From the IMG/VR virus record IMGVR_UViG_3300044802_000020: DNA of 46,553 nt. One strand, written 5' to 3'. This document shows positions 8,092-42,482 of this stretch, in pieces. The notes beneath the pieces were generated by a model that made no database searches, was not told the DNA's origin, and saw only the letters and a program-made list of their open reading frames with translations. Origin of the DNA: a virus. Numbering within the stretch: the stretch's first letter is position 1; the number at the start of each line of letters is the position of its first letter. The translations under genes and the position numbers were made by a program.

Positions 8092-8405
8092 GTCTCCCCC
8101 GGTGCGAAGTAGTAGAGCTTCACGCGCCCGCCGAGGTCGCCATCGTCGGACGTGGCATCAATGCCCTGTTCGCTTTCATCGATCATGAAGAAGTTCCCGA
8201 TCTGGACGCCGAACCCCGAAAGTAGATCGACGCCCAAGAACAAAGAAACCCCCATAGCCAAATAGACTTGGTCCGCGCGTCGCAGAACATCCATGCTCCA
8301 GCTTTGTCGAGCTTCGTTCCACTTGACGATCAAGTCGTATTCGGTGCCGTCGAGTGTGATTGTGACGACCTGGCACGGGTCCGATGTCAACGGCACAACG
8401 ATCAT
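8088..8405 (-). CDS. Hypothetical small tail/baseplate protein.
   Basis: 105-aa ORF, ATGA-coupled on both sides inside the tail module. Confidence 0.75.
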   Translation of the reverse strand: MIVVPLTSDPCQVVTITLDGTEYDLIVKWNEARQSWSMDVLRRADQVYLAMGVSLFLGVDLLSGFGVQIGNFFMIDESEQGIDATSDDGDLGGRVKLYYFAPGET

Positions 8406-9151
8406 GGGTCATCCCCTCCGTTGACGAGCATCGCCTGTCCGGGCGGATCTGGGTATCGGTTGTACGCAATCTTCTCCGCCGTATCTTCGTCGAACACCAC
8501 ATCATCCGAGCCCGACATCAACCGCGCTTTGTACGCTTGACGCTGCTGCGCGAGGGACGGTGTCTGACCTTCGGCTTTGCGCTTCTTTGCCAAACTCGCC
8601 GAACGCGACGTCGAGCCCTTCGCCAAGGGGCGGTACTTCGCCACCAAGACGCGCGATAGGTTGATTCCTACGAAGGAAAGCTCTGCTTCGAGCACTTCGG
8701 AACGCTTGGCGTCTTCGCCGTACTTGATGTTCGTCAAGAACATGTTTCGATACAACCCAAGCCCCATCTGTAGATCGCACAGTTCATGCCGCTTGCGTGT
8801 CGAATCGAGCAAGGACAGTGCAGCCTGCGAGCGCGTAAGGCCCGGCACAATGTAGCTGTATCCGGACTTGTCCACGTCTTGGGGGAGCGCAGGGCCGTCT
8901 TGGTCGTGGGAATCGAGGCTTTGATCGTTGAGTAGATTTTCCGGAGCTGCGTTCGACACAATGACGGTCATCGTGATCTGGACTTGCTCATCGTACGCAT
9001 GATCGTTGATGGGCGAGCCCGTGGCGATGGGGTTGGACGTGACCTTCGTAGGAAGGGACACCTCGGAATTAAGCACCGAATCCCACACAATGGCCCAAGC
9101 CGCATCGGCATCTTGGACGCTGGACATTTTGCGAATGACTGTAGCGCTCAT
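8402..9151 (-). CDS. Tail-associated protein of unknown function, immediately downstream of the tape measure.
   Basis: 249-aa ORF whose start overlaps the tape-measure stop. Confidence 0.75.
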   Translation of the reverse strand: MSATVIRKMSSVQDADAAWAIVWDSVLNSEVSLPTKVTSNPIATGSPINDHAYDEQVQITMTVIVSNAAPENLLNDQSLDSHDQDGPALPQDVDKSGYSYIVPGLTRSQAALSLLDSTRKRHELCDLQMGLGLYRNMFLTNIKYGEDAKRSEVLEAELSFVGINLSRVLVAKYRPLAKGSTSRSASLAKKRKAEGQTPSLAQQRQAYKARLMSGSDDVVFDEDTAEKIAYNRYPDPPGQAMLVNGGDDP

Positions 9152-11870: not shown

Positions 11871-13343
11871 CTAAGGGCTGAAAATCAGCTTGAGGTTGGC
11901 CTTCTGGATGGCCCCCGAACCCGTCGCCAGCGCCGTGATGGGCGGCGAAACGCGAGTGTTGCGGTCGGCCTGGCTCATGCTGGAGATGGGCTCGGCGTAC
12001 ACGTAGAAGCCGTCTTTCAAGTATCCGCCCGGCTTCACCGTGCCCACACCCGTAACGGTCCTCGGCCAGTACCCCGGCGCCAGAAGTCCGTTGTTGACGG
12101 CCTTGCGAAGTGCGGTCTCGAAAGCCGTCACCAGCAAAGCCACGTCTTCGTCAGTCTGCGCGAGTCGTCCCATGGCGGTCATGGCCGCGTAGACCTGCGT
12201 CTTGATCTCCAGGTCGAGCCAGGACAGCCCGAACACCTGATCGATGTACGTACCGTCGCCCATGGTGCCGTACGTGAAAATGGGGCTGTTCGCGCCGAAC
12301 GAAGCCACGACGTTGCAGTTCTTCGCGCGCAGACCATCGTAGATGCTTTGGTCGATGTTCTCGCCCGACACGCCACCGATGGCCTTACCCCACAGGGTGA
12401 TGACCGAGCGATATTGCGTGTAGTCCACGACCGCAATACGCGCGAGCGCGCCCACGCCTGCGTTGGGCGTATCCGTCGAGTACGTGACGAAGGTGTACTT
12501 GTTCGACTTCCGCTTGGTGTACCCCGCGATGTCCGTATCGCCGCTGGTCGGCGTAGCGTACGCAGCCGGGCTGTTGGTCGTCGCCGCCATGGGGCGCTTG
12601 TTCGCGAGCGCCCAATCCGAGGCGTTCTGCAAGTCGGTCAGATCCGCATCGCTCGCCATGGCGAAAGAGAACCAAGACGAGGTGAAGACCTTCGCCGCCG
12701 TCAAAGAATCGTCGACGACGGTTTCCGCCGCGATCCCCACCGCGCGACGTGCGCCTTCTTCGACGGTCAGGCCGAGAAGCGCGGCCGTCGTGGTGTCGGT
12801 GCCGGCCGTCGTGGCGAAACTGACTTGACTCGAAGTCCCTGTGGTGGGGGAGCTGACCAGGAAGAACCCGTCCGCCGTGTACGTGCACGTGGTGCTTGCG
12901 AGCCCCGCGGCCAACTGCGACTGAATCGCAGTGGCCACGGCCGCGAAGTCGGCACAGCCCGAGAGGTCGAGCGCCGTCACGTGGATCGTGGTGGTGTCCA
13001 CGGTGACATCGAACGCGCCCGCCGTGATGGCCTTCAAGGCGAGCAACGCCCCGTGCGCACCGCCCAGCAGCACACCGGCCTGTGCCGTCGAGAATCGCCG
13101 CGCGATGTACAGCCCGCTAAGCGATGGGTTCTGCGCGAAGGCAACCATCGCCGCTTTGTACTCGGGGTCGGACGCCGAGAATCGCGAAGCAAGCGTGTCA
13201 GAGGTGAAGTATTTCACCTTTTCGTAGACCGCCAGCTTGGCGGACTTTCCGAAGATGCACACCCCTTGCAAGCTCGGCGTGGCAGGCGGAAGCTGCGGAA
13301 CCTCGATGGTCAAACCGATTACGTTGTTGATGTCGAGACTCAT
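11871..13343 (-). CDS. Contractile tail sheath protein.
   Basis: 490 aa. Its size and its position upstream of the tube gene fit the sheath proteins that co-occur with this capsid/portal gene set. Confidence 0.75.
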   Translation of the reverse strand: MSLDINNVIGLTIEVPQLPPATPSLQGVCIFGKSAKLAVYEKVKYFTSDTLASRFSASDPEYKAAMVAFAQNPSLSGLYIARRFSTAQAGVLLGGAHGALLALKAITAGAFDVTVDTTTIHVTALDLSGCADFAAVATAIQSQLAAGLASTTCTYTADGFFLVSSPTTGTSSQVSFATTAGTDTTTAALLGLTVEEGARRAVGIAAETVVDDSLTAAKVFTSSWFSFAMASDADLTDLQNASDWALANKRPMAATTNSPAAYATPTSGDTDIAGYTKRKSNKYTFVTYSTDTPNAGVGALARIAVVDYTQYRSVITLWGKAIGGVSGENIDQSIYDGLRAKNCNVVASFGANSPIFTYGTMGDGTYIDQVFGLSWLDLEIKTQVYAAMTAMGRLAQTDEDVALLVTAFETALRKAVNNGLLAPGYWPRTVTGVGTVKPGGYLKDGFYVYAEPISSMSQADRNTRVSPPITALATGSGAIQKANLKLIFSP

Positions 13344-20856: not shown

Positions 20857-22209
20857 TCACAGAGTGTCGAAAATTGTAGGCGTCCGAGTGACGAGATCTT
20901 CGTGTGAATACCGTATGGCATCCCATCCGTGATCGTACCCCGGCTTGAGCAATCGCAAAGGTTTCTTGGTCAACGGGTCCAGCTTGTAGCTCCATAGGCG
21001 ACACTCTTCGAGTACGTTCGTACACGATGGGTGTACATAGATGCGCTCGAAGCCCCGTAGATAGGCGATGCCGTCTTCTACGCATCCCGGCCACTTCTCG
21101 CACGACCGCATGAGGATCATTCCGTCGACGTTCACGAGGTGTGAAATGGTCTCGGGGCGCGCGTTGTCCGCGATGCTGGCGTATCGGCGAAACTCACTGA
21201 TGGAATCGAGCACGGTGTGCAGGTGTGTGATCTCGGCCCCCAGCGTGCCGGGCATCGCATACGCCTCCTCGGCGATGTACAGATTACGGCGCAAGGGCAG
21301 TTGAACGTCCGCACCTTCGATCTCCGTCGTGCGGCCGATGTCTTCGGGGTTGAGTAGCTCGACATAGGACTTCGTACCCGCGCTCGGGTCTTGCGAAAAG
21401 CCGAAGTCGACGCCGAGATACGGCCCGCTGAAATTCTGCCGTCCCGTCATGCGTACGTCGAAGTCCTTCGAGCACCATTTGCCGTCGAGCACTTGGGCAT
21501 CGTTCTTGAACCAAGTCTTACCGCCCCAAATGTGTTCGTAGCGTTCCGGGTCGTGCTCGCGCATGTACTCGGCTTGGCTGCGTAGAACTTCGGGAAGCCA
21601 TGGGTTGTCTTTCCAGCCGACTTGCAGCACGACCGCACCGGGGAGCCTGCGAGTCGGGATCGCGAACATCTGGTAAATCGGGTCTTGCTCCTCGCGCGGG
21701 TTGAAGCTAATCCAGATCTCCGACCCAGGACTTCGGATGGTGGGGTCGAGCACATCCCACGACTCTTGCGAGATGGTCTCGGCTTCTTCGATCCAGCAAA
21801 TGTCGATAGCTTCCATCGACTTCTTCGCGGACATGTTGTGATGGAGCCCCACGAAGATGAACTGCGAACCCGTCCAGCGATTGACGATCTCCGTGTCGTT
21901 GATGACGTACTCCGACTCAAGCCCCAACCGCACGATCTGGCTCTTGAGGAGGTAGTGCACCGACTCACGGATCGACTTCTGAAACTCGCGCGCGCAAAGG
22001 ATACGAAGCTTCTTCCTGCACGCGAGCACGACAAGGGCGCGCGCGATGGTCCACGACTTCACCGACCCACGGCCCCCGTAGACCACGCGATAGCGCGGAC
22101 CTTGGACGAAGAACCGACGCATGCAGCGCGGAACCTCGAAGATGACTTGCTCCCCGCGAGCTGGCCCAAGCTCGGACTCTGCGAGTAGCGCCCACTGCGA
22201 TTCAAGCAT
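20857..22209 (-). CDS. terL: Terminase large subunit.
   Basis: 450 aa from the ATG at 22209 (MLESQWALLAE...). It has a Walker A-like VVYGGRGSVKSW and a Walker B-like ICWIEEAE, with a nuclease-type C-terminal half. Confidence 0.85.
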   Translation of the reverse strand: MLESQWALLAESELGPARGEQVIFEVPRCMRRFFVQGPRYRVVYGGRGSVKSWTIARALVVLACRKKLRILCAREFQKSIRESVHYLLKSQIVRLGLESEYVINDTEIVNRWTGSQFIFVGLHHNMSAKKSMEAIDICWIEEAETISQESWDVLDPTIRSPGSEIWISFNPREEQDPIYQMFAIPTRRLPGAVVLQVGWKDNPWLPEVLRSQAEYMREHDPERYEHIWGGKTWFKNDAQVLDGKWCSKDFDVRMTGRQNFSGPYLGVDFGFSQDPSAGTKSYVELLNPEDIGRTTEIEGADVQLPLRRNLYIAEEAYAMPGTLGAEITHLHTVLDSISEFRRYASIADNARPETISHLVNVDGMILMRSCEKWPGCVEDGIAYLRGFERIYVHPSCTNVLEECRLWSYKLDPLTKKPLRLLKPGYDHGWDAIRYSHEDLVTRTPTIFDTL

Positions 22210-22918
22210 CGAAAATGGTCTTTGCTTCGTCGACGGCGTCTTCGCTGTAGTCTCGCGCCTGCTGTTTCGGTTGCGGGTCTTGCGTCGCGGTCGTAGCATC
22301 GACGAACTTGACGGTGACTTCTCGAAGCTGTCTTTCCCCGCCAGCGGGCAACGGCTTTCCGTCCGAAGTCACGTCCACGCCCGAACGCCAACGCTTCGGG
22401 AACCGCACGGCCAAGAATCGCAACGCTGTATCGGCCGCATCCTTGGTAGGGAATTCACGGCGCGCGTGGATGAACTTGTGGACGACGGCCGTGCACCGCG
22501 CTTCCACCCCGGCAGCCATCGCACCGACCGCGCGAGCGAAAATCCAATACGGTCCGCTGCCTTCCTTCTCGCCTCGCATGATCCACGTGGCGACCATGCG
22601 CGACGATACGCTAGCCACGTCGCACGCCTGCTCGAAGTACATCCCCATGCCGAGCAACCCAAGGATCTTCTCGACGCGCTCGATCTTGAACTTCGACGTG
22701 CTGCGGTCGTTGGCCCTCGCCGTGGGGGGGACCAACTTCCCGCTCTTGTTCCGCTTCCACGACTTGTGTTTGACGGGCTTGCCCTGTACCGGCCAAGCGT
22801 ACTCTTTGAACGACTTCGCGAGCGCGGCCTTCACCGCGGCGGGGTCGGAGAAGTCGATATACTCGGGCTCGGTCTCGTCGGACGGTTCGGGAAAATCCTG
22901 CTTCTTTTGGTCGGACAT
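22202..22918 (-). CDS. terS: Terminase small subunit (putative, HTH-containing).
   Basis: 238 aa from the ATG at 22918 (MSDQKKQDFPEP...), with AGGGGTG upstream. A helix-turn-helix-like segment is present (GMYFEQACDVASVSSRMVATWIMRG). The gene overlaps the terL start by 8 nt. The tracked upstream 102 codons are off-frame-like. Confidence 0.65.
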   Translation of the reverse strand: MSDQKKQDFPEPSDETEPEYIDFSDPAAVKAALAKSFKEYAWPVQGKPVKHKSWKRNKSGKLVPPTARANDRSTSKFKIERVEKILGLLGMGMYFEQACDVASVSSRMVATWIMRGEKEGSGPYWIFARAVGAMAAGVEARCTAVVHKFIHARREFPTKDAADTALRFLAVRFPKRWRSGVDVTSDGKPLPAGGERQLREVTVKFVDATTATQDPQPKQQARDYSEDAVDEAKTIFDA

Positions 22919-22979
22919 GGACGCACCCCTAAAATAGACCCGTTGCCCCTCCCAGGGAAGAAACCAAAGGAGATCCCAC

Positions 22980-23198
22980 ATGGCAATCAAACGAAGGTCA
23001 GGCGGCGGTGGCGGAAATCGCGCCCCGCGAGTTGGTGGACGCGCAAGCCGCGCTGTCGCGGCAAACATGCGCACCGAAGGACGCGTTTTCAACCCGAAGA
23101 CGCGCAAGCTGGAACGTGAGAAGACCGGCATTCCCCGCGCCGCGCGGGAGTCGGCCGCCATGAGCGCGGCAGCCGGATCGAGCAACGAGGAAAAGTAG
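22980..23198 (+). CDS. Small, highly basic Gly/Arg-rich protein of unknown function.
   Basis: 72 aa (MAIKRRSGGGGGNRAPRVGGRASR...). A strong AAGGAG lies 7 nt upstream of the ATG. The TAG stop overlaps the GTG start of the next gene (TAGTG). Confidence 0.7.
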   Translation: MAIKRRSGGGGGNRAPRVGGRASRAVAANMRTEGRVFNPKTRKLEREKTGIPRAARESAAMSAAAGSSNEEK

Positions 23199-23866
23199 TG
23201 CCCTCGCTGCTTGAAGCAGCCCACGGAAGAGCCGCCGAGGTAGCGAAACTATCCGGCGGCTCTCTTCTTTTGGGGCTGTCTGGGAAAGATTCTTTCGTCA
23301 CGCTGGCCATCGCCGCCGAGCACTTCAAGCGGATCGAGTGCTTCCACCTGTACACCGTGCGCGGCCTGCGTTGTCTCGAAATTCCCCTGCAAGTCGTGTG
23401 CGCGCGCTTCGGTGCCAAGCTACACTACGTGCCGAGCCCGAACCTCGCGCGACTCATGAAGCACGGCGTTTTGCGTACGCACATCTCGAAGCTCACGCGG
23501 CGCCCCGAGATGAAGCGCGAAGACTGCGAACGGCTCATCCGTCGGCGTACGGGCATCGAATGGATCGCCTACGGTGAGCGCCTATCTGATTCGTTCGCGC
23601 GCCGTCTGTTCTGGCGGAAGATCAACGGCATTTACGAGAAGGGGAAGCGCGCGGCGCTCATCGTCGATTGGCTGGACGCTAACGTGTACGCGTACATGCG
23701 CGCGATGAAGATCCCAACCCCCTGTACCTTCGGCTCTTCGACGAAGTCGACGGGCTTCGGCCTTTCACGCGAAACGCTGCGCTGGCTTTCCGAGACGCAC
23801 CCGGACGACTACGAAAAAGTGTTGCGAGTTTTCCCCGGTGCGGGCGCGCAGCTCATCGACGTTTAG
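23198..23866 (+). CDS. PAPS-reductase-like PP-loop protein (IbrA / DndC-like superfamily).
   Basis: 222 aa with a GTG start and GAGG 9 nt upstream. The N-terminal LLLGLSGKDSFVTLAIA resembles the SGGxDS PP-loop of PAPS reductase-family enzymes but is one Gly short. Confidence 0.6.
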   Translation: MPSLLEAAHGRAAEVAKLSGGSLLLGLSGKDSFVTLAIAAEHFKRIECFHLYTVRGLRCLEIPLQVVCARFGAKLHYVPSPNLARLMKHGVLRTHISKLTRRPEMKREDCERLIRRRTGIEWIAYGERLSDSFARRLFWRKINGIYEKGKRAALIVDWLDANVYAYMRAMKIPTPCTFGSSTKSTGFGLSRETLRWLSETHPDDYEKVLRVFPGAGAQLIDV

Positions 23867-24165
23867 CCCAGCACGCGACGGGCAGGTATCGGCGGCAAGC
23901 GCACAGGCGGCGGGGCTGGCACCATACACTTACACCGCGTGTGGTATCCCATCGTGTGCCGATGCACGTCGCTAATCACGACGCGCCCCAGGCAGCGTTT
24001 CGCAAGCCAGTGCTCGACTTCTTCGCCTTCTTCGGACACGGCTTCGTGCCCATCCCATTGATCGCACGTCCAAGACTCCCCGCACTTCGTACACGTCAAG
24101 CGCACCAATGCGTGCTGCGCGCGATGATCAACCTTCACGGGCGGCGGAACTGTATTCGACACCAT
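23863..24165 (-). CDS. Cys-rich small protein (possible zinc ribbon).
   Basis: 100 aa from the ATG at 24165 (MVSNTVPPPVKVD...). It contains CTKCGESWTC and CKC motifs. It is the last gene of the minus-strand mini-operon, and its stop overlaps the convergent plus-strand stop. Confidence 0.65.
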   Translation of the reverse strand: MVSNTVPPPVKVDHRAQHALVRLTCTKCGESWTCDQWDGHEAVSEEGEEVEHWLAKRCLGRVVISDVHRHTMGYHTRCKCMVPAPPPVRLPPIPARRVLG

Positions 24166-24173
24166 AGCCGTAC

Positions 24174-24842
24174 CTACGCGAACGGCCCAAACACCCGCGC
24201 GCGGTGAGGGTCCGAGCACCAAAACGAAGAGCCCCGGCGCTGAGCTGTGCTCCCTAACGCGTCCTGCACCGCTTGCAGCACTCCAGGAAACGAGGTCGTG
24301 AAGTCATGCCCGGCGATAACCCCCGTCGGCTTCAACTTGGGCAGAAACGCACGAAGAAGCTCGACGGTGTCTTGGTAGCCGTGCTGGGCGTCGATGAACA
24401 CGAAATCAAGGCTCGCGTCCGCGTACGTCGCCGCGCGCTCTTGCCCCTTCGCCGACACGAGCTGCACGTACTTTTCCAGCCCTGCATGAAAGACCAGATC
24501 CCGCACAAGGTTGTCGTGCGGCCTGCCTGCGAGAATCGACGCGCGAAGCCCCGCGGGCACGTCCACGGCACCCGGCACGGGAAGCGCCATGATTTCATCG
24601 TACGTACGCAAGAGCCCGGACGCATCCCAGCCGAACACGTCGAAAGCGTCGAAAGCGATCTTCTTCCCCGACGCCTGGATCGCTTCGGCCATGTACAGCG
24701 TCGACTTGCCGAACATCACGCCGACTTCGACGAACGCCGCACCTTCGGCCGGCGCACGCGAGACCGCCTCGGAGTAGAGATCCGCGAAGTCGAAATACCC
24801 CGGCACGTTCTCCCAAGAAATCGCCAAGCCTCGAAGGTTCAT
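24174..24842 (-). CDS. Class I SAM-dependent methyltransferase (Methyltransf_24 / CmcI-like).
   Basis: 222 aa. FVEVGVMFGKSTLYMAE is a motif I-like segment, and LDFVFIDAQHGYQDTVELLRAFLPKLKPTGVIAGHDF fits the family. Confidence 0.75.
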   Translation of the reverse strand: MNLRGLAISWENVPGYFDFADLYSEAVSRAPAEGAAFVEVGVMFGKSTLYMAEAIQASGKKIAFDAFDVFGWDASGLLRTYDEIMALPVPGAVDVPAGLRASILAGRPHDNLVRDLVFHAGLEKYVQLVSAKGQERAATYADASLDFVFIDAQHGYQDTVELLRAFLPKLKPTGVIAGHDFTTSFPGVLQAVQDALGSTAQRRGSSFWCSDPHRARVFGPFA

Positions 24843-25564
24843 GACAGCACCTTGTGATCGACGTACCGAGTCCCCGCTTCAAGCCCGAGTTTTTCGAGCC
24901 ACGCATCCTTCGCCTTGCGGGAAGGGAACACGACCATGGCAATGCGTGCGGTGTCGAGGTCTTGACGATCCGACTTCCCCTTCTCGCGCATCTTCTGACG
25001 ACGATCCTTCGCCTCGGCGGCTTCCTGCTCGCGTGCTTCGGTCATTTCGTCGAGGTCATCGACAACGGCCTTCGTCTCGGGCGTCTGCTCTTCTTCGCTG
25101 AAAAGCCCCTTGCCCTGCTCGCCTAGCAGCGCTTCCATGCCGACTTGATCGAATCCCGTAGCGTCGAGGTCGAGACCTGGCAACACATCGGCGAGCGCGA
25201 CAAGATCCCAATCCCCCCCAAGGGCGGGATTGTTGAAGGCGATGTTCTCTTCGCGTTCCTGTTGCGGCGCGAGCTTCACCACACACACGTAGAGGAGATA
25301 CGCGCTTGTCCCCATGAGCGCATCGAGAATAGCCAGGCGCTTGTGTCCACCTACGATGTTGCTCGTAACCGAGTTCACCGTCACGGCTTGCAGCAAACCC
25401 CGCTTCTTGATCTTCGCAGTGAGGCGCTTCTGCGCATCCTTCGAGATGGTGCGCGGGTTGTATGGCGCGTTCTTGATCTTGCGGCGATCCCAGCGCTCGA
25501 CCACGAACTTCTGATAGGGGCAGAGGGCGAGATCTTTCGACACGGTAGCTACTTGCTTTGACAT
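24839..25564 (-). CDS. ParB N-terminal-domain (ParB/Srx-fold) protein.
   Basis: 241 aa from the ATG at 25564, with AAAGG 8 nt upstream. It carries APYNPRTISKDAQKRL and IVGGHKRLAILDAL (GxxRxxA-type). An alternative GTG at 25666 adds 34 codons of low GC3 and was not preferred. Confidence 0.75.
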   Translation of the reverse strand: MSKQVATVSKDLALCPYQKFVVERWDRRKIKNAPYNPRTISKDAQKRLTAKIKKRGLLQAVTVNSVTSNIVGGHKRLAILDALMGTSAYLLYVCVVKLAPQQEREENIAFNNPALGGDWDLVALADVLPGLDLDATGFDQVGMEALLGEQGKGLFSEEEQTPETKAVVDDLDEMTEAREQEAAEAKDRRQKMREKGKSDRQDLDTARIAMVVFPSRKAKDAWLEKLGLEAGTRYVDHKVLS

Positions 25565-25734
25565 GTTCGCCTTTGCTGACGTTGAAGATTGCGTACGACT
25601 TTTGCGCAAAGATGCGCTGTTTCGTGCCCCCCTTCGTCGAAGCTTCTTTCTTTGAGCGCGTGCCACTGCGCGATGCTGCCCAACACAACGGCGTCGACGT
25701 TATCCATGCACCACATGACGACCATCGGAAACGC

Positions 25735-25965
25735 CTACCCGTAGACCAGGGGAACCTTGACCTTCTTCGCACGCATCGCCCGGCGCTGCTGATGGTTCGG
25801 CCCTGTGCTGGGCGTGAACGTACCGGCTAACGCCGCGCGCTTCTCTTTGCTCGGCACACGCGCAAGGGGTCCGAACTTCGCGACCTCAAGCTTATATGTC
25901 AAAGCATCTTCACCGTTGCGGCTTGCGCGCGCGAGCATGGACTTCGGAACAAGGATTCTTCCCAT
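25735..25965 (-). CDS. Small hypothetical protein, first gene of the minus-strand mini-operon.
   Basis: 76 aa (MGRILVPKSMLARASRNGEDALTYKLEVAKF...), with GAAAGG upstream. It faces the AT-rich control region. Confidence 0.55.
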   Translation of the reverse strand: MGRILVPKSMLARASRNGEDALTYKLEVAKFGPLARVPSKEKRAALAGTFTPSTGPNHQQRRAMRAKKVKVPLVYG

Positions 25966-26059
25966 CGGCCTGCCTTTCGATGGGCAGAGAATACCACTGA
26001 ATGAGGACGGACCGCTACGATCTACGCGTGACGCGGGAGGGAAGAAAAAGGCGCTTTGC

Positions 26060-26300
26060 GTCCTAAAAAGCTCGTGTTTCGAGTTACGAGTTACGAGGGG
26101 GTCTACCTTACTATTGAATTCTTCTCTTCTACTATATATGGTATTGTTTAATTATTCACCCTATACTACGTATTGTCTTTCTCTTTCTTAGGTAAAAACT
26201 AAACTTGAAACTCGATCCGGGATAGTACGAAAGGGGCTTAAAATATAGGGTTTCTGTGTGTTTCAACTTTGTAACCGTGTTCGACAACAAAGAAGGGAAA
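26060..26300. promoter_or_regulatory. AT-rich divergent control region, a candidate for early promoters and/or the replication origin.
   Basis: Hand counts of lines 26101-26280 give about 30-38% GC, against well over 55% for most lines elsewhere. A tandem GAGTTAC GAGTTAC GAG sits at 26081-26097. The region lies between divergent genes starting at 25965 (-) and 26310 (+). Confidence 0.6.
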
Positions 26301-30671: not shown

Positions 30672-30861
30672 GTCCATCGGAGATCTCTACAGGCTGCAAT
30701 CGGACGTCGACACAGCCCAGTCGGCGAAGCACTACCAGCAAGTACGGGCGGACAAAGCGCGCCGCGCGCTGGCCGATGCCCTGGCGGGGCTCGCGGCGGC
30801 AGACGAGCGCCTCGAAACCGCGCAGCGGGCGCTTGAGGAGTACACGTGCACGACGACGTGA
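30664..30861 (+). CDS. Small coiled-coil protein, hypothetical.
   Basis: 65-aa ORF with GAAGGAA upstream. Confidence 0.55.
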   Translation: MPKSIGDLYRLQSDVDTAQSAKHYQQVRADKARRALADALAGLAAADERLETAQRALEEYTCTTT

Positions 30862-31316
30862 GGATTTGCCCCTACTGCCACGGACGGAAGGTGTTCGGCG
30901 CATTTCGAGCCCCGTGTATCTGCACCATTGGAACCGGCGAGCCCCGGCGCCCGGCCCTGGTCCGTGTCGCCCACCGCACGCGCGACAAGCTCGCGGCGGT
31001 GAAGTACCCGACCAACCATGACCGCCCCACGATGCGCGGCGAGTGCCCGGATACGCGGCCGTGCCCCTTCGTCGGCTGCCCGCACAACAACTACCTCGAA
31101 GTGCTCCCTTCGGGAGACATCCGCTTCCACCACCCCCACCGCGAGCCGTGGCAGGTTCCCGCTCGCGAGTCGTGCACGCTCGACGTTGCCGAATGGCCGG
31201 AAGGTGCCACGCTGGAAGAAGTCGGGCGGATGTTGAACCTCACGCGCGAACGTGTCCGCCAGATAGAAGCGGCGGGATTGCGCAAGCTGAAAGCCTCACA
31301 CCATGACGATGTTTGA
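30846..31316 (+). CDS. Zn-finger plus sigma-70 region-4-like HTH protein, putative transcription factor.
   Basis: 156 aa with a GTG start and GAGGAG 6-7 nt upstream. It has CPYCHG and CPFVGCPH Cys motifs. The C-terminal TLEEVGRMLNLTRERVRQIEAAGLRKLK matches the sigma70 region 4.2 HTH signature. Confidence 0.7.
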   Translation: MHDDVRICPYCHGRKVFGAFRAPCICTIGTGEPRRPALVRVAHRTRDKLAAVKYPTNHDRPTMRGECPDTRPCPFVGCPHNNYLEVLPSGDIRFHHPHREPWQVPARESCTLDVAEWPEGATLEEVGRMLNLTRERVRQIEAAGLRKLKASHHDDV

Positions 31317-31596
31317 AGCACTGGCATTCTTGGGCCTTACTGCGGAAGCCTCCGAACATGAGATCCGAGCGGCCTACCTTGCGGCTTGCCGACGGCTGCA
31401 CCCTGACACGGGTAGCGGCGACATGGAAACCTGGCAACGTTTGAAGGTTGCTCGGAAGGTCTTGGAAGAAACCAAAAATGAGCGGACAAAGTGCCCGACT
31501 TGCAAGGGTTTGAAGGTCGAAAAAATACTAGGCGGCAATTGGAGCGTACTTATAACTACATGTAGGACATGCCAGGGAAGTGGCCGAAAACCCTAG
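31303..31596 (+). CDS. Mini-DnaJ: a J-domain with the HPD motif plus one CxxCxG zinc centre.
   Basis: 97 aa. It contains FEALAFLGLTAEASEHEIRAAYLAACRRLHPDTG, then CPTCKG and CRTCQGSG. Confidence 0.75.
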   Translation: MTMFEALAFLGLTAEASEHEIRAAYLAACRRLHPDTGSGDMETWQRLKVARKVLEETKNERTKCPTCKGLKVEKILGGNWSVLITTCRTCQGSGRKP

Positions 31597-34132: not shown

Positions 34133-34726
34133 ATGATCATTTCCATCGAAGGCGTGGACGGGGTCGGCAAGACGAAGGTTGCAAAGGCCCTCGCTGGTCG
34201 GCTGCACATCTGCTACCAGAAATTCCCAGATCGCACGACCGAAAGCGGGAAGTTGTTGGCGGCCGTGCTGCAAGGGCAAGCGCGGATTCATCCGGTAGCG
34301 TTCCAGGCTCTTCAAATCGCCAACCGTCTCGAGCAACTCCCGCTTCTTCACCACGCCTACCAAGGCGGAACGCACCTTGTGTGTGACCGCTACACGCTGT
34401 CCGGGGCTGTGTACGGCAGGCTCGAAGGTCTACGTATGGGATGGTTGCTTAGTATGTTGCGCGCCGTTCCTGCCGCCAACGTCGAAGTGCTCCTAACGTG
34501 CGACGTGAAGAAGCTCGACGGCGAACGATTGGCAGGCCGAGATCGTGAGATGTACGAAACGGGAGGGGTCGAACGCCTCGCCCAGACACAGAGCAAATTC
34601 GAGGGCTTTTTCGAGACTCGGGAAACGAACCGCCGCGCTCGCTGGTTGAAGTACGACACGACATACGTCGCCCCTGAAATCATCGCAAAACGCATCGCGG
34701 ATACCCTGAAAGGCTGCTTCGTATGA
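34133..34726 (+). CDS. tmk: Thymidylate (dTMP) kinase-like P-loop kinase.
   Basis: 197 aa. It has the P-loop MIISIEGVDGVGKT and a DRY-type segment LVCDRYTLSGAVY. Confidence 0.75.
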   Translation: MIISIEGVDGVGKTKVAKALAGRLHICYQKFPDRTTESGKLLAAVLQGQARIHPVAFQALQIANRLEQLPLLHHAYQGGTHLVCDRYTLSGAVYGRLEGLRMGWLLSMLRAVPAANVEVLLTCDVKKLDGERLAGRDREMYETGGVERLAQTQSKFEGFFETRETNRRARWLKYDTTYVAPEIIAKRIADTLKGCFV

Positions 34727-36975: not shown

Positions 36976-36995
36976 TCGAGAAAGAAAGGTGTCTA

Positions 36996-37172
36996 ATGCC
37001 TATCCCCGAAATGCCGAAGACCTCGCCAGAAGCTTTGGTACGCGCCGAGGTTATCTTGCGCGATTGGATGGTGCGCGGGGTAGGCGATACACAAGATGTG
37101 ACGGCGGAACTTCTTCTCATGATCGTCGAGCTGCAAATTCAAGTCGAACGTCTGCGACAAAAGCCATGGTAA
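36996..37172 (+). CDS. Small protein of 58 aa, below the ORF-track length cutoff.
   Basis: Manual translation gives MPIPEMPKTSPEALVRAEVILRDWMVRGVGDTQDVTAELLLMIVELQIQVERLRQKPW, with GAAAGG upstream. The stop overlaps the polymerase ATG (ATGGTAA). Confidence 0.55.
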   Translation: MPIPEMPKTSPEALVRAEVILRDWMVRGVGDTQDVTAELLLMIVELQIQVERLRQKPW

Positions 37173-39160
37173 AGCGTAGTTGCAAGAATTGGGTCTGTAT
37201 AGACTTCGAGACCTTCCCGATTCGCAGGCGCCCCGAGTACCCGCCGAAGCCCGTCGGCGTAGCTATCAAGTACGCGGGAAAGAAAGCCCACTACTACGCT
37301 TTCGCCCATCCCAATGGGGGGAACAACAGCACATACGCCGAAGCTCGGCGAGCGTTGAAGGCGGCGTACCAGTCCGAAGCGCTGTGCTTCCACAATGCGA
37401 AGTTCGACCTGGAAGTCGCCCACGTACACATGGGGATGCCGATGCCGTCCTTCGGCAAGGTCTACGATACGCAGCTTATGCTGTTCATCGACGACCCACG
37501 GGCGAAGTCCTACAAGCTCAAGCCGTCGGCGGAACGGCTGCTCGGCGAGCCGCCCCACGAGCGCGACGAGTTGATCGACTGGCTCGTCAAGCATCAGCCC
37601 GTGCCCGGTGTGCGTCTCACCAAGAACGAATATCCGGCCAAGGATGCGAAAGTCGAATACGCGGGCGCGTACGTCGCCTATGCTCCAGTGCCCCTTGTGT
37701 TCCGTTACGCGTGCGGCGACGTGGCGCGAACCGAGAAGCTCGCAAAGCTTCTCGTGCGGAAGCTGACCGCCACCGAGCAAATCAAGGCGGCGGATGTCGA
37801 GCACGGCATCCTTGCCCCAATCCTGCAAATGGAGCGCGACGGTGTCCCGGTCGACCTTAAGCGTCTGCGCGCTGACGTGACGAAGTACAACGCAGCGCTG
37901 GCGAAGGCCGAGGAGTGGTTGTGCAAGAAAATGAAGGCGCCGGTCGGCACTAATTGGGATTCGTCCGCTACTCTGTTGAAGCTACTCAAAGCCGCGGGGC
38001 TCGTCGATGCGTCGAAGCTGCACAAGACGAAGAAGCCCGGCAAGGACGGCAAGCCGCGCGACAGTTCAAGCAAGGATTCGCTCGCTGGGGCTGTCACGAG
38101 CGAACAGACGTTGTCCGTGCTCAAGTACAGGTCGCGACTGTGCGTATCGCTACGCACCTTCATGGAGCCATGGCTAGAGGTCGCCGAGAAGTCGAAGGGG
38201 TTCGTCTATACGACGTGGAACACCACGCGCACAGATGACAGTGGCGCCCGCACGGGTCGACTGTCGAGCACGCCTAATTTCCAGAACTTGCCGAAGCGCG
38301 CGCCGTACCTGTTCGGTACAAGCTCCGAAGGCGCAAAGGCGGTGCCTGCATGGTGGGTGAAGATGGGGCTTCCCGACCTCCCGAACGTGCGCGGCTACGT
38401 CGTGCCGCTGCCCGGCCACGTGCTCGTCGACCGCGACTATAGCCAACAGGAATTGCGCATCTTCGCCCACTACGCCGAGGGGGAGCTTCTCGCGAAGTAC
38501 CTGCTCGACAACTGGCTCGACGTGCACGGCCTGGTCAACGCTCGCGTCAATGAACTGATGCTATCCGAGATCTCCCGTGACGTGGTCAAGCGTCTGGTAT
38601 TCGCGACGGTGTACGGAATGGGCCGTCCGGGGGTCGCGCGGCTGTCGTCGGAGTACGGCATCCCTGGACCGAAGCTCATCGAGATCGCCGATGCTGTGAA
38701 AAAGGCCGTGCCTGGGCTGATCGCGCTCAACCGGATGCTGCGGAAGCGCTGCGATTTGAAGCTTCCAATCCGCACGTGGGGCGGGCGTGTGTACTACGTC
38801 GAAGAGCCGCGCATCGTAGATGGGAAGATGCGCACCTTCGAGTACAAAATGCTCAACCTGCTGATTCAGGGGAGCGCGGCCGACAATACTAAACGAGCAT
38901 TGCTCAACTTCTGGGAGTACATCATCAAGCATCGGTTGCCGTGGCGGATCTTGATGTCAGTACATGACGAGTTTGTTCTGTCGGTGCCCCGCAAAGATCT
39001 GCGCCGCGCGCAGGAAGCGCTACGGGCGGCGATGGCCGATGTCGAGTTCGACTTGCCAATGCTGTCCGAGGGCAAGTACGGCGCCAACTGGGGAGCGCTC
39101 AAGTCCTACGATAAGAAAGGTGCGGTCGTGTACCAACGAGAGGAGCGGAAAGCAGCATGA
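37166..39160 (+). CDS. Family A DNA polymerase with a 3'-5' exonuclease domain and a polymerase domain, and no 5' nuclease domain.
   Basis: 664 aa from the ATG at 37166 (MVKRSCKNWVCIDFETFP, Exo I DxE). Motif A is DYSQQELRIFAH, motif B-like is RDVVKRLVFATVYGMG, and motif C is SVHDEFV. The tracked GTG start at 36989 adds an Arg-rich off-frame-like extension. Confidence 0.9.
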   Translation: MVKRSCKNWVCIDFETFPIRRRPEYPPKPVGVAIKYAGKKAHYYAFAHPNGGNNSTYAEARRALKAAYQSEALCFHNAKFDLEVAHVHMGMPMPSFGKVYDTQLMLFIDDPRAKSYKLKPSAERLLGEPPHERDELIDWLVKHQPVPGVRLTKNEYPAKDAKVEYAGAYVAYAPVPLVFRYACGDVARTEKLAKLLVRKLTATEQIKAADVEHGILAPILQMERDGVPVDLKRLRADVTKYNAALAKAEEWLCKKMKAPVGTNWDSSATLLKLLKAAGLVDASKLHKTKKPGKDGKPRDSSSKDSLAGAVTSEQTLSVLKYRSRLCVSLRTFMEPWLEVAEKSKGFVYTTWNTTRTDDSGARTGRLSSTPNFQNLPKRAPYLFGTSSEGAKAVPAWWVKMGLPDLPNVRGYVVPLPGHVLVDRDYSQQELRIFAHYAEGELLAKYLLDNWLDVHGLVNARVNELMLSEISRDVVKRLVFATVYGMGRPGVARLSSEYGIPGPKLIEIADAVKKAVPGLIALNRMLRKRCDLKLPIRTWGGRVYYVEEPRIVDGKMRTFEYKMLNLLIQGSAADNTKRALLNFWEYIIKHRLPWRILMSVHDEFVLSVPRKDLRRAQEALRAAMADVEFDLPMLSEGKYGANWGALKSYDKKGAVVYQREERKAA

Positions 39161-39393: not shown

Positions 39394-40119
39394 TTGCCCA
39401 TCCAACGTCTGCCCCAATTGACCGCGTGGTCCTACTCCCGTCTGACGACCTGGGAGGAATGCCCTCTCAAGTGCAAGCTCAAGAACATCGACAAGATCCA
39501 AGAGCCCGACGGCCCGGCCAAGGGGCGAGGGATCGCGATTGAAGGCGAAGTGATGGACTACATTTTCGGCCGCGCGAAGACGTTGCCGGAAAGCTGCGCA
39601 CGCTTCCCCGAAGAGCTGGCGGCGCTGCGGAAAATCTCGAATCGTCTAGTCATCAAGAAGAAGCTCGCGTTTACGCGCGAGTGGAAGCTGTGCGACTACT
39701 TCGGTTCGGACGCGTGGTTGCGCATCGAAATGGATCTGTTCTGGGAAGAACTCATCCCCGGCCAGAAAAAGCACTGGCGCGTGCGCGTGGTCGACATCAA
39801 GACCGGCAAGATCTACGAAGACAAGGTCGACCAAGTCGAGCTGTACAACCTGTGCGCGCTGCTGCTGGACGAACCCGACGATTTCGTCACGCACAGCCCA
39901 CAGACGGCGTTCTCCGAGCTGTACTACCTCGACCAGGGGGAGACACGCGACAGGGCCATGGTGGCGTCCGACGTCGCGAAGGCCAAGTCGTATTGGGAGA
40001 ACCGCGCCGTGCGCATGCTGGCGGACACGGCATTTCAACCCACCCCTTCGTACCGCTGCAAGTGGTGCTTCTTCCGCAAGGCCAACAAAGCCGAGGGCGG
40101 CGGACAATGCCCCTACTGA
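39394..40119 (+). CDS. PD-(D/E)XK nuclease, Cas4/RecB-like, with a four-Cys cluster.
   Basis: 241 aa with a TTG start and GAGGG 9 nt upstream. It has an N-terminal Cys (EECPLKC), VVDIKTGK (D-x-K), QVELY (QhxxY), and a C-terminal CKWC...C cluster. Confidence 0.75.
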   Translation: MPIQRLPQLTAWSYSRLTTWEECPLKCKLKNIDKIQEPDGPAKGRGIAIEGEVMDYIFGRAKTLPESCARFPEELAALRKISNRLVIKKKLAFTREWKLCDYFGSDAWLRIEMDLFWEELIPGQKKHWRVRVVDIKTGKIYEDKVDQVELYNLCALLLDEPDDFVTHSPQTAFSELYYLDQGETRDRAMVASDVAKAKSYWENRAVRMLADTAFQPTPSYRCKWCFFRKANKAEGGGQCPY

Positions 40120-40355: not shown

Positions 40356-40663
40356 CCGAAGCACGCTATCAAGCCAAGTTTTTGAAACGTGCTCGGCTCG
40401 AAGGTTGGGTGGCCTGGAAGATCCAAGCGCCAGGCACCAATGGAGTGCCCGACACGCTGCTGTTAGTGCCGACTGCCAAGGGGCATGGGCGCGCGGTGTT
40501 CGTCGAGCTGAAAGCGGCGGGTGAAGAACCGACGGACCTTCAAGAATACTACCTCAACCTTCTTCGTCGATGCGGCTTCGTGGCGTTCTGGGCGGACACA
40601 ACAGCCGACATCGAAGACCTCATCAAGTACATTCGCGCCCAGCTACGAAAACGCAAGCGATGA
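40352..40663 (+). CDS. VRR-NUC domain nuclease.
   Basis: 103 aa from the GTG at 40352, with a GTGA overlap. It contains GVPDTLLLVP...AVFVELKAAGEEPTDLQEYYLNLLRRCG, a PD...E-x-K...Q pattern. Confidence 0.7.
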   Translation: MTEARYQAKFLKRARLEGWVAWKIQAPGTNGVPDTLLLVPTAKGHGRAVFVELKAAGEEPTDLQEYYLNLLRRCGFVAFWADTTADIEDLIKYIRAQLRKRKR

Positions 40664-42135
40664 AATTCATCCCCCGAGAGTACCAAAAGGCAGGCATCCG
40701 CTTCCTTGTTTCCCGTCGCGAGGCTGCGCTACTGCTTAAGCCTGGACGTGGGAAGACGGCCGCGACGCTGGCCGCGTTCCAATTGCTCGCGCGGACCTCG
40801 AAGATGCGGGCTCTCGTGCTCGCCCCTCTGCGCGTCTGTTACGACGTCTGGAGCGCGAGCGGCGAGATCGGGCGCTGGGACCAATTCAAGGGATTGCGCG
40901 TGGCGCTACTACACGGGCCGAAGAAGGAAGAAGAGTTCCGCAAGAAAGCGGACATCTACGTCATCAACTACGAAGGTCTCGACTGGTTATGTGCGCCCCG
41001 TGATGCTCTCAAGGCGTACGGGCTGCGCAACGTCTCGCGACTAGACGAGCTTCTCGGACTGTCGTCCGGGGGGCTCGTGCTCGTGTGCGACGAGCTGTCC
41101 AAGTTCAAGCATACGAAGACGAAGCGCTTCAAGGCGCTTCGTCCGTACCTGCCACGCTTCGCGTTCCGCTGGGGGCTCACGGGCTCGCCGGCTGCGAACA
41201 GTCTAGAAAACCTGTTCGGTGAGTGCTACGTGCTCGACTTAGGCAAGCGCCTTGGGCGGTACATTACGCACTTCCGACAGAACTACTTCATCCCCTGTGG
41301 GTTCCAGGGCAAGGAATGGCGCCCGGCGCCCGGAGCGGAAGAGCGTATCTATGCGGCCATCAAGGATCTGGCGCTGGTCATCGACACGCCCGACTCGGGG
41401 GAACCGGAACTCGTCACCAACAATGTGTGGGTTGACTTGCCACCGAAAGCCCGGAAGTTTTACGACGTGCTCGAAGAGGAGATGATTGCCGAGATCGACG
41501 GCAACGTCGTTGTAGCGGGGTCCGCGGGCGTCGTCTCGGGCAAATGTCGTCAGATTGCGAGCGGTGGAATATACACCCATGGTCTGACGCAACTTCCGAA
41601 GGGGCGCGGGATTCAAGGCGTGCCCGAAGTTCAACCTGTGCACGATGCGAAGACGGAAGCCCTGGTCGACCTCGTCGACGAGCTGCAAGGACAGCCCCTT
41701 ATGGTGGGCTTTGAGTTCAAACACGACCGCGCCCGCATCCGCAAGGCGCTTGGCAACGTGCCCAGCATAGACGGAGACTGCAACCCCGCGCAAGCATCCG
41801 CCATCATCGCCGACTGGAACGCGAGCAAAACACCTGTGCTTCTCATTCACCCCCAGGCGGGGGGTCACGGGCTCAATCTGCAAGGCTGTTCGTGTGCGAA
41901 CTTCTGCTTCTACACATGTCCGTGGGACCGCGAGCTGTACGATCAAGTCATCGCGCGCGTGTGCCGGCAGGGGTCGAAGGCCGAAGTTGTCGTAGTCCAT
42001 CGCCTTCTGGCACGCGACACGGTCGACGAAGCCGTGGTGCGCGCGCTCGGAGCGAAGGGGAAGACCGAAGCGGCGCTCTTCGCAGCGCTCAAAGAGTACA
42101 GCCAGGAAAGGAAGGCCAAGAAATGCGCTCGGTAG
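40660..42135 (+). CDS. SNF2-family (SF2) helicase/translocase.
   Basis: 491 aa from the ATG at 40660, with an ATGA overlap. Motif I is LLLKPGRGKT, motif II is LVCDELSKF, and the C-terminal helicase domain contains HPQAGGHGLNLQ. Confidence 0.8.
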   Translation: MKFIPREYQKAGIRFLVSRREAALLLKPGRGKTAATLAAFQLLARTSKMRALVLAPLRVCYDVWSASGEIGRWDQFKGLRVALLHGPKKEEEFRKKADIYVINYEGLDWLCAPRDALKAYGLRNVSRLDELLGLSSGGLVLVCDELSKFKHTKTKRFKALRPYLPRFAFRWGLTGSPAANSLENLFGECYVLDLGKRLGRYITHFRQNYFIPCGFQGKEWRPAPGAEERIYAAIKDLALVIDTPDSGEPELVTNNVWVDLPPKARKFYDVLEEEMIAEIDGNVVVAGSAGVVSGKCRQIASGGIYTHGLTQLPKGRGIQGVPEVQPVHDAKTEALVDLVDELQGQPLMVGFEFKHDRARIRKALGNVPSIDGDCNPAQASAIIADWNASKTPVLLIHPQAGGHGLNLQGCSCANFCFYTCPWDRELYDQVIARVCRQGSKAEVVVVHRLLARDTVDEAVVRALGAKGKTEAALFAALKEYSQERKAKKCAR

Positions 42136-42482
42136 ATCTCCAGAAAATCACGTTGCGAATGAATGGCGAAGGTCGCACGTGCCTCTACTTCGGCGCCTCA
42201 AACGCAACCATTCGTATGCAGTCCGGACCTCTCATCGTCGAGACGTTGAGCCAGGCCGATTTGCTGCGACAATTCCCCGTCGATGTACTAGCGGACGCCG
42301 AGACACGCACGCGACGCGCGCGCCTGGACTCTGCCGGGCATCAATACGTGCTGCACGCGGCATTGGCGGGAGCTTCTGCCATGGCCGTGAATCTGCTTTA
42401 CGACATCCACACCCCCGATCTGACACTGCTTCGACAAGTTGAAGAGCGCATCGCTCCCAAGCCTGCAAAGGATCCACTATGA
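42123..42482 (+). CDS. Hypothetical protein.
   Basis: 119 aa from the ATG at 42123, which overlaps the SNF2 gene end by 13 nt. Confidence 0.6.
   Translation: MRSVDLQKITLRMNGEGRTCLYFGASNATIRMQSGPLIVETLSQADLLRQFPVDVLADAETRTRRARLDSAGHQYVLHAALAGASAMAVNLLYDIHTPDLTLLRQVEERIAPKPAKDPL

Follow-up and report, generated by a model that had tools for sequence, protein, structure and literature searches.

The pairing of a phosphoadenosine phosphosulfate (PAPS)-reductase-like protein with a ParB-like protein is already known and is widely annotated. The closest described systems are IbrA/IbrB of Escherichia coli ECOR-9 and YbdN/YbdM of strain K-12, each of which combines a member of the PAPS-reductase family with a protein of the ParB/sulfiredoxin (Srx) fold; the ibr genes, found in a prophage or mobile-element setting, have been described as encoding prophage transcriptional regulators or co-activators (PMC8813620, PMC4490671). 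In the literature that was searched, no paper was found that resolves the biochemistry of such a pair. Here we analyse a pair of this kind in the virus record IMGVR_UViG_3300044802_000020, a stretch of 46,553 nucleotides that is referred to throughout as the window, and show that it belongs to a conserved phage cassette of three genes, for a small basic protein, a PP-loop enzyme and a ParB/Srx-fold partner, which in this genome is interrupted by unrelated cargo.

Several other systems bear on what such a cassette might do. ATP pyrophosphatases of the PAPS-reductase family are also found in DndB/DndC, SspD, BrxP and TdpC, and the dnd genes likewise include one for a ParB-fold protein. According to PMC12914056, the first step of DNA phosphorothioation is adenylylation of a DNA phosphate, and TdpC, a single PAPS-reductase-like protein, is reported (citing An et al. 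2025) to suffice for that modification via an adenylated intermediate. The ParB fold, for its part, has CTP, ATP or GTP as ligand; in phages and prophages it is commonly joined to a methyltransferase, and according to a 2025 survey it includes the kinases SerK and SbnI as well as sulfiredoxin (PMC12704722). Finally, in TtuA-TtuB and in NcsA with SAMP2 or Urm1, a PP-loop enzyme is likewise associated with a small protein that ends in Gly-Gly; those carriers have the beta-grasp fold, and their enzymes bind a [4Fe-4S] cluster through cysteines.

A conserved core interrupted by cargo

The genes concerned occupy positions 22980 to 25965 of the window, as follows.

22980-23198, plus strand: 72-residue basic, Gly/Arg/Ala-rich small protein (GR72), conserved in relatives
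23198-23866, plus strand: 222-residue PP-loop ATP pyrophosphatase of the PAPS-reductase family, short form (PF01507, phrog_424)
23852-24857: lineage-specific insertion (cargo slot) of 1006 nt, placed by a break in blastn homology
23863-24165, minus strand: 100-residue Cys-rich open reading frame (ORF; CxxC...CxC), an orphan of uncertain coding status, without homologue or family
24174-24842, minus strand: 222-residue class I S-adenosylmethionine-dependent O-methyltransferase (Methyltransf_24; PF13578, E 2.6e-17)
24839-25564, minus strand: ParB/Srx-fold partner, 241 residues from Met35, the longest ORF extending to 25666 (phrog_9353, E 1e-45)
25735-25965, minus strand: 76-residue protein, first gene of the leftward operon (tblastn matches in the related loci L004, E 7e-12, and L009, E 9e-14)

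Relatives of this locus were collected by a profile scan of IMG/VR, which gave 80 loci falling into 52 clusters at 90% identity (the de-replicated relatives), and eight related metagenomic phages, in which the PAPS-like protein is 56-82% identical, were compared with it. The ParB-like gene adjoins the PAPS-like gene in 48 of the 52 de-replicated relatives; it lies directly downstream in 38, which is also the order of IbrA/IbrB, downstream after a gap in 5, and directly upstream in 5. In the last group (clusters L045, L035, L043, L037 and L058) the ParB-like gene is of a different subtype, with a DG.HR motif, and matches the partner profile more weakly. All eight close relatives keep the large and small terminase subunit genes (terL and terS), the small ORF, the PAPS-like gene and an abutting ParB-like gene, which is either co-directional with the PAPS-like gene or convergent with it through overlapping stops. 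The two main genes are thus a genuine linked pair, as a sequence-only reading of this DNA had proposed.

The genes between the pair behave quite differently from the pair itself. No methyltransferase homologue was found in any of the 80 IMG/VR loci or in any of the eight close relatives, and the Cys-rich ORF is absent from both sets as well. Homology at the blastn level between the window and its nearest relative, L009, runs from 23127 to 23851 and resumes from 24858 to 25522; the 1006 nt between these blocks correspond to 63 nt in L009 and, in L004, to a different filler of 486 nt, so that the methyltransferase gene and the Cys-rich ORF are cargo in a variable slot. Filler ORFs that separate the PAPS-like and ParB-like genes in other phages match no informative family. 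It is because of the insertion that the window's two genes lie 1 kb apart and converge with cargo between them, unlike the adjacent pair of the IbrA/IbrB type. In another relative, a Tad2-like gene (PF11195, an anti-Thoeris family) was seen about 1.3 kb from the ParB-like gene (L011, 8639-8854, minus strand), and counter-defence cargo may accumulate around the cassette.

These comparisons bear directly on the earlier proposal that all six genes form a multi-step base, backbone or RNA modification pathway. The six ORFs and the motifs quoted for them are where that reading placed them (LSGKDS of the PAPS-like ORF at 23276-23293; NPR at 25451-25459 and GGHKRLA at 25331-25351 of the ParB-like ORF), and the two gene runs do converge on overlapping stop codons, TAG at 23864-23866 and TAA at 23863-23865, which appear on the plus strand as TTAG at 23863-23866. 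Its family labels also hold, namely PF01507 and phrog_424, phrog_9353, and PF13578, with profile searches keeping the PP-loop protein in the PAPS-reductase family. The physical adjacency of the genes, together with an ATGA overlap between the ParB-like stop and the methyltransferase start, would favour a single pathway; the census, however, largely refutes it, as two of its supposed steps lie within the insertion and are missing from every relative, one of them without any homologue, and the methyltransferase appears by fold and neighbours to serve sugar O-methylation (see below). Co-occurrence outside this genome therefore holds for the two-gene core and fails for the six-gene set, and a six-gene pathway is now highly improbable.

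The PP-loop enzyme

The assignment of the PAPS-like protein rests on its family more than on the single sequence. Searched by itself, the window protein matches PF01507 with an E-value of 0.0076 and 16.7 bits, below the gathering cut-off of 22.5, and it matches phrog_424 with an E-value of 7e-7. An exhaustive search returned 801 representative clusters, 466 of them at E<=1e-10 and nearly all encoding proteins of 200-300 residues; conservation was computed on 63 diverse representatives with 27-60% identity to the window protein. PF01507 is matched by 61 of those 63 (E<=0.01, best 3e-15), and the family profile matches the structures of CysD, TtuA and CysH. A sequence search of solved structures with the window protein returned nothing, and its AlphaFold2 model resembles PP-loop enzymes in general and nothing more specific (TtuA, APS reductase, LarE, and GMP and NAD synthetases).

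Positions that are invariant or nearly so across the family comprise the PP-loop, D109, W122, G126, R135, W158, P202 and D204; D204 is among the invariant ones, as are G126, R135 and the SGGKDS loop. The GxRxxDSxxR motif reads YGERLSDSFARR in the window, with G126 and R135 invariant and D131 and S132 conserved at 86-89%, and the W..DV..Y motif reads DWLDANVYAY, its W158 being conserved at 95%. The motifs GxRxxE/DSxxR and W..DV..Y are those of the nucleotide or phosphosulfate pocket in CysH, CysD and DndC. This pattern of conservation indicates that the PAPS-like protein is an enzyme rather than a scaffold. For the PP-loop the family consensus is SGGKDS. In the window's clade the loop has lost one residue (S-GKDS), and 10 of the 63 representatives, from different subgroups, show that deletion as well.

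Cysteines are the most informative absence. No cysteine column exceeds 60% conservation across the 63 representatives, so that the family has neither an Fe-S ligand set nor a catalytic thiol, and the window protein ends in ...VFPGAGAQLIDV (...GAQLIDV), without the catalytic-cysteine motif of CysH (ECGLH-type). This lack argues against PAPS reduction, thiolation and sulfur insertion of the Dnd type. A true PAPS reductase, carried as an auxiliary metabolic gene that boosts sulfate assimilation by the host, is suggested by the name that IMG and many phage records give to such proteins; with no conserved cysteine, a single-protein score below the Pfam cut-off and a ParB-fold companion in nearly all relatives, it is extremely unlikely.

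DNA phosphorothioation, or another insertion of sulfur by an enzyme like DndC, SspD or TdpC with the help of a host cysteine desulfurase, has somewhat more in its favour, since the Pfam family is the same, the combination of a ParB-like (DndB-type) with a PAPS-reductase-like (DndC-type) protein echoes dndBC, and TdpC is reported to act alone. We nevertheless consider it very unlikely. The family lacks the cysteines and Fe-S ligands concerned; the pair matches none of the PADLOC models for Dnd, Ssp and BREX (E<=0.1), in agreement with the sequence-only reading, which had recognised no Dnd or Dpd set (no match to Dpd models was obtained either); and the window genes scanned include no DndA-, DndD- or DndE-like gene, no desulfurase, no DndD/SspC ATPase and no restriction partner. 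The cassette, moreover, lies in the context of a phage packaging module, and Dnd and Ssp systems in defence islands.

The kinship with the E. coli pairs, which had also been proposed from the letters alone, is borne out as a distant homology. With hhalign, the PAPS-like profile aligns to YbdN with a probability of 95% (E 2e-8), over the PP-loop domain only (YbdN residues 26-219), and the profile of the ParB-like partner aligns to YbdM with a probability of 88% (E 3e-6). YbdN is a protein of 406 residues with PAPS_reduct and DUF3440 domains; the window protein has 222 residues and a different, short helical C-terminus, in which Pfam reports no DUF3440. By sequence, then, the window protein is classed as a short-form relative of YbdN and not as an IbrA orthologue.

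The ParB-like partner

Judging from its relatives and from codon score, the ParB-like gene probably starts at Met35 (25564). Beside its phrog_9353 match, Pfam gives the ORF a weak match to ParB_N, and a sequence search of solved structures gave marginal matches only. The protein consists of an N-terminal domain with NPR and GGH(K/Q)R motifs followed by a conserved C-terminal domain; when 44 partners are aligned, N, P and R are invariant and the residues G-H-Q-R nearly so. The partner profile matches the N-terminal domains of ParB, Noc and Spo0J (E 2e-4 to 7e-4) with boxes I and II aligned, and only this N-terminal domain resembles ParB/Noc. In 39 viral loci the profile is matched over its full length; because these partners match from end to end, they constitute a single dedicated family rather than any ParB domain that happens to be nearby.

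The closest relatives outside that family are N-terminal domains of phage DNA methyltransferases (phrog_498, E 8e-23; PADLOC MTase_II, E 4e-13), and many annotated phage methylases were matched by tblastn with the ParB-like protein. In such fusions (phrog_498; PF02195 with PF01555) the ParB domain is joined to a methyltransferase; the partner has no methyltransferase domain. In that place it has a conserved C-terminal domain of its own, and the PP-loop enzyme is a separate protein encoded as its constant neighbour. Scans with the NCBIfam and PADLOC models were otherwise uninformative for the proteins of the locus. Pfam detects no helix-turn-helix (HTH) domain in the protein, and none of the window genes scanned was identified as ParA. 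The partner is accordingly assigned by its motifs to the ParB/Srx superfamily, and is not predicted to be a canonical ParB CTPase, which would have a GERRxRA box II, an HTH domain, a C-terminal dimerisation domain and a ParA.

The small basic protein

The gene for GR72 is preceded at 7 nt by an AAGGAG ribosome-binding site, and its stop codon (TAG) and the GTG with which the PAPS-like gene begins overlap, an arrangement of translational coupling. Its codon score is weak, despite conservation in relatives: homologues occupy the same position in L009 (E 6e-17) and L004 (E 7e-13), and positional equivalents are found in L011 and L012. Across the wider family, small ORFs that end at the PAPS-like start were censused in 56 loci, with 3749 small ORFs of the same loci as controls. 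Those that are basic (isoelectric point above 10) with at least three glycines among the last six residues occur in 20 of the 56 loci and make up 0.7% of controls, and a C-terminal glycine is present in 26 of the 56, against 8.4% of controls. The tails belong to several sequence-distinct groups (...RRKS.GG.GG, ...KKAGTSGGG and ...GAGGGGG) in genomes with GC contents of 0.36-0.69. No mention of a small third component of such a cassette was found in the literature searched. Operons in which a YejK-type nucleoid protein accompanies a PAPS reductase and ParBc (PANGU preprint) were considered and set aside, as GR72 is unrelated to that protein in size and type. At ybdN there is an upstream gap of 146 nt, with no small Gly-tailed gene annotated in it.

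From this enrichment a peptide-directed system can be imagined, although it is unlikely. The PP-loop enzyme would adenylylate the Gly-rich C-terminal carboxylate of the small basic protein, or else a phospho-serine that the Srx/SerK-like ParB-fold partner would supply at a conserved (R/K)(R/K)xS site, and the product would be a modified peptide, or one covalently attached to some target, phage DNA or a packaging protein for instance. The conservation of the tail over so wide a range of GC contents speaks for such a system, as do the coupling of the two genes, the presence of serine kinases and sulfiredoxin within the ParB fold, and the rank of TtuA, the partner of a Gly-Gly-ended protein, among the best fold matches of the enzyme. 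The tail does overlap in part the Shine-Dalgarno sequence of the next gene, which weakens the case; the C-termini of the PAPS-like proteins, however, are under the same downstream ribosome-binding-site constraint, and none of 52 has a Gly-rich tail.

Other observations count against a peptide substrate. GR72 itself ends in ...AAAGSSNEEK, and its closest relatives end in ...SSNEG rather than in GG. The small proteins of the family, at 36-100 residues, are very basic and of low complexity, and their length and composition argue against a beta-grasp fold like that of TtuB, SAMP2 and Urm1; the cassette enzyme, having no conserved cysteine, also differs from the [4Fe-4S] enzymes that those carriers serve. 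Cultured phages of Lactobacillus, Riemerella and Gordonia carry the PAPS-like enzyme and lack the small ORF, and no PF01507 member is known to act on a peptide. Were such a system nevertheless to exist, it would put the PAPS-reductase fold to a new use and would supply pairs of the IbrAB type with a biochemical function.

Position at the head of the packaging module

The cassette is flanked by packaging genes on one side and by an early control region on the other.

22202-22918, minus strand: candidate small terminase subunit (TerS; phrog_4102, E 2.4e-4), kept in relatives
22919-22979: divergent intergenic gap of 61 bp separating the starts of the TerS gene and the small basic gene, read off the sequence
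25966-26255: AT-rich divergent control region of 290 bp between the p76-ParB operon and the rightward early genes (GC 0.43, genome 0.60)

The TerS candidate, directly upstream of a Terminase_3 TerL gene (20857-22299), is the first gene of a packaging operon that diverges from the cassette. The same placement recurs elsewhere: a gene for a large terminase subunit lies no more than 3.5 kb away in at least 25 of 45 loci, portal proteins are also among the large flanking ORFs of those loci, and in cultured Lactobacillus, Riemerella, Pasteurella and Cutibacterium phages the pair is likewise next to terminase genes. Four Pfam families of terminase are represented beside the pair, which therefore marks the head of the packaging module irrespective of the packaging machinery in use.

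This position can be explained in two further ways. The pair might be a packaging accessory: the ParB-like protein would assist the terminase as a nuclease or by binding DNA, much like the HNH proteins that are found next to terS, and the PAPS-like protein would be its ATP-using cofactor. In several records the partner does carry the label nuclease or ParB-like nuclease, and the adjacency to terS and terL fits; the association holds, however, whichever terminase family, and with it whichever packaging chemistry, is present, and the ParB-like gene of the window belongs to a leftward operon that starts at the AT-rich control region, for which reasons we regard a packaging role as rather improbable.

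The main rival to the mechanism preferred below is a role in transcription of the IbrA/IbrB type, in which the ParB-like protein would load near the packaging operon and, together with the PAPS-like protein, switch on late or prophage transcription. A location immediately upstream of terS-terL, or divergent from it, is a typical one for a late activator and is kept with any terminase family, and the distant homology to YbdN/YbdM and the description of IbrA and IbrB as co-activators point the same way. ParB-fold CTP clamps can, moreover, regulate transcription, as seen for KorB (PMC11790492) and BisD (bioRxiv 10.1101/2024.09.16.613209). Set against this are the strict catalytic-type motifs of the PP-loop protein, which a scaffold would not need, the absence of a detected HTH domain from the ParB-like protein, and the absence of any repeated binding site near terS; within the 61-bp gap, in particular, no repeat and no consensus promoter was found. 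In the Lactobacillus phage JNU_P7 an ArpU-family regulator is encoded just upstream of the pair, which consequently need not be the late activator of that phage. An altered pattern of transcription could also be secondary to a modification of DNA. On balance a co-activator role is a serious but doubtful possibility.

A proposed mechanism

The mechanism that we favour, tentatively and as something short of probable, is an ATP-dependent adenylyl transfer that is targeted by the ParB-fold partner onto phage DNA, with the small protein as cofactor or co-substrate. PF01507 has members that do not depend on cysteine, CysD and FAD synthetase, in which the AMP moiety of ATP is passed to an oxyanion, either sulfate or phosphate. 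It is this chemistry, together with the adenylated first step reported for TdpC, that leads us to prefer adenylyl transfer. The PP-loop enzyme would spend ATP to adenylylate an oxyanion, and the ParB-fold partner would provide nucleotide-gated binding and targeting, the role that this domain has where it is joined to a DNA methyltransferase of a phage. Phage DNA, marked at around the time of packaging, would be the likeliest substrate, with the small basic protein serving as a DNA-binding cofactor or as a substrate in its own right. Such marking of DNA could also account for the altered expression of prophage genes that is caused by the E. coli homologues. A role in DNA is supported by the nearest relatives of the partner's ParB domain, which belong to phage DNA modifiers, and a nucleic-acid-modifying role for the two-gene core, as first suggested for the whole locus, is plausible.

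Several observations weigh against this proposal. DNA is a putative substrate, put forward by analogy, and the sole experimental phenotype reported for IbrAB, by Sandt et al. in 2002, is a transcriptional one. The shortened PP-loop of the window clade could weaken ATP binding, although 10 of the 63 representatives have it too; the AlphaFold2 model of the PAPS-like protein is of moderate confidence (predicted local distance difference test score, pLDDT, 63), and box II of the partner reads GGH(K/Q)R instead of GERR. The gene that follows the PAPS-like gene is not recognisably ParB-like in several cultured phages, and in the window the two genes are on different strands, the ParB-like one belonging, it appears, to a leftward operon of early genes.

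The cargo

The methyltransferase in the cargo slot had been taken for a nucleic-acid-modifying step, and that assignment is not supported by its fold or by its homologues' neighbours. Its AlphaFold2 model (pLDDT 94) finds its best structural matches (Foldseek E 2e-10 to 3e-7, template modelling score 0.53-0.68) in MeT1 of M. hassiacum (a sugar 1-O-methyltransferase), CalS11 (a TDP-rhamnose 3'-O-methyltransferase), MycF, the mycobacterial Rv0187 and the catechol O-methyltransferase COMT; no DNA methyltransferase fold stands near the top of that ranking. Sequence identity to MeT1, CalS11 and MycF/TylF is 16-20% only, and a sequence search of solved structures gave marginal matches only. Pfam reports PF13578 alone, with no match to PF01555, PF02384 or PF00145. 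The label 'DNA methyltransferase' that phrog_2675 would confer on the protein was rejected, that profile being a multidomain one of 599 positions.

The closest homologues of this enzyme, with 50-66% identity, are found in three other phage types, where they lie 0.1-2 kb from a PF03407 glycosyltransferase of 505-569 residues, sometimes along with FkbM- or TylF-type methyltransferases; relatives of the window enzyme, itself a Methyltransf_24 protein, also match TylF. Those glycosyltransferases are full-length homologues, at four loci, of a protein that the window also encodes (39-43% identity, E 1e-120 to 1e-133):

42479-44158, plus strand: 559-residue Nucleotid_trans glycosyltransferase (PF03407, E 2.4e-11)

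The homologues beside methyltransferase homologues are at L014 2676-4193, L015 7114-9396, L016 1719-3251 and L017 2019-3728, and one glycosyltransferase homologue is fused to a TylF-type methyltransferase domain. In LR756501.1, a 735-kb uncultured megaphage, homologues of the two enzymes are again neighbours, the glycosyltransferase being at 331819-333913. Given its fold and the company that its homologues keep, the methyltransferase most likely methylates a sugar that is handled by the 42479-44158 enzyme, even though that gene is 18 kb away in the window, and it is likely to belong functionally with that enzyme rather than with the cassette. Candidate carriers of the methylated sugar would be a virion protein, a host glycan or a DNA sugar. 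The arrangement looks like a recurrent phage set of glycosyltransferase and O-methyltransferase. A hypermodified-base pathway was considered and dismissed, as none of the early genes scanned was recognised as encoding a dUMP or dCMP hydroxymethylase.

For the Cys-rich ORF, a search of 5.8 billion proteins yielded no homologue, and it matches no Pfam, PHROG, NCBIfam or PADLOC family. Its codon score is 0.015, against 0.18-0.30 for its neighbours, and is still the best of the six frames; no clear ribosome-binding site precedes it. On these grounds it may not be a gene.

The remainder of the genome

An exact direct repeat of 127 bp at the window's ends (1-127 and 46427-46553) shows that the assembly is circular and that the phage genome, of about 46.4 kb, is complete. 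No near-identical phage DNA or close cultured-phage relative was found for it, a scan of genome collections for prophage hosts gave no match, and no integrase was seen among the window genes scanned. Across the 22.7-26.4 kb area no repeat, promoter or terminator rose above chance, the sole sigma-70-like match there being in the region 25966-26255, which is probably a divergent early control region. Rfam and tRNA scans of the window returned no RNA family and no tRNA. The 76-residue protein of the leftward operon is conserved in the closest relatives only and matches no Pfam or PHROG family; beyond it, the right flank of the six-gene stretch encodes a DUF3854/DUF5906 primase-helicase.

Further to the right, on the plus strand, a small protein with a sigma-70 region 4 domain (30846-31316, E 4e-11; also in L009 at 12193-12453 and L010 at 8365-8553) may be a phage sigma factor or late regulator, and a 97-residue protein (31303-31596) combines a J domain with a portion of the CxxCxGxG zinc-finger region of DnaJ; so minimal a DnaJ-like gene is unusual in a phage. 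The replication and lysis arm carries genes for a thymidylate kinase (34133-34726), a family A DNA polymerase (36989-39160), a PD-(D/E)XK nuclease (39394-40119), an SNF2-type helicase (40570-42135) and an N-acetylmuramoyl-L-alanine amidase (44393-45127).

Implications

What is new in this analysis is the separation of the core from its cargo, the recognition of a short, Cys-less form of the PAPS-like enzyme with one dedicated partner family, the terminase-independent position of the pair, and the Gly-tailed small protein. Reassignment of the methyltransferase corrects an over-reading of the locus, and brings to light a glycosyltransferase/O-methyltransferase set that recurs in unrelated phages, the 735-kb megaphage included. 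Pairs of a PAPS-like and a ParB-like gene are among the commonest unexplained gene pairs of phages and prophages, and they are routinely mislabelled as sulfur-metabolism genes. IbrAB has reportedly been known since 2002, and YbdNM is the pair of this type in E. coli K-12, so that the puzzle they pose is two decades old. The Cys-less short form of phages, which alone accounts for 801 representative clusters, its specific ParB-fold partner, the place of the two where the packaging module begins, and a frequent Gly-tailed basic protein provide leads towards its solution.

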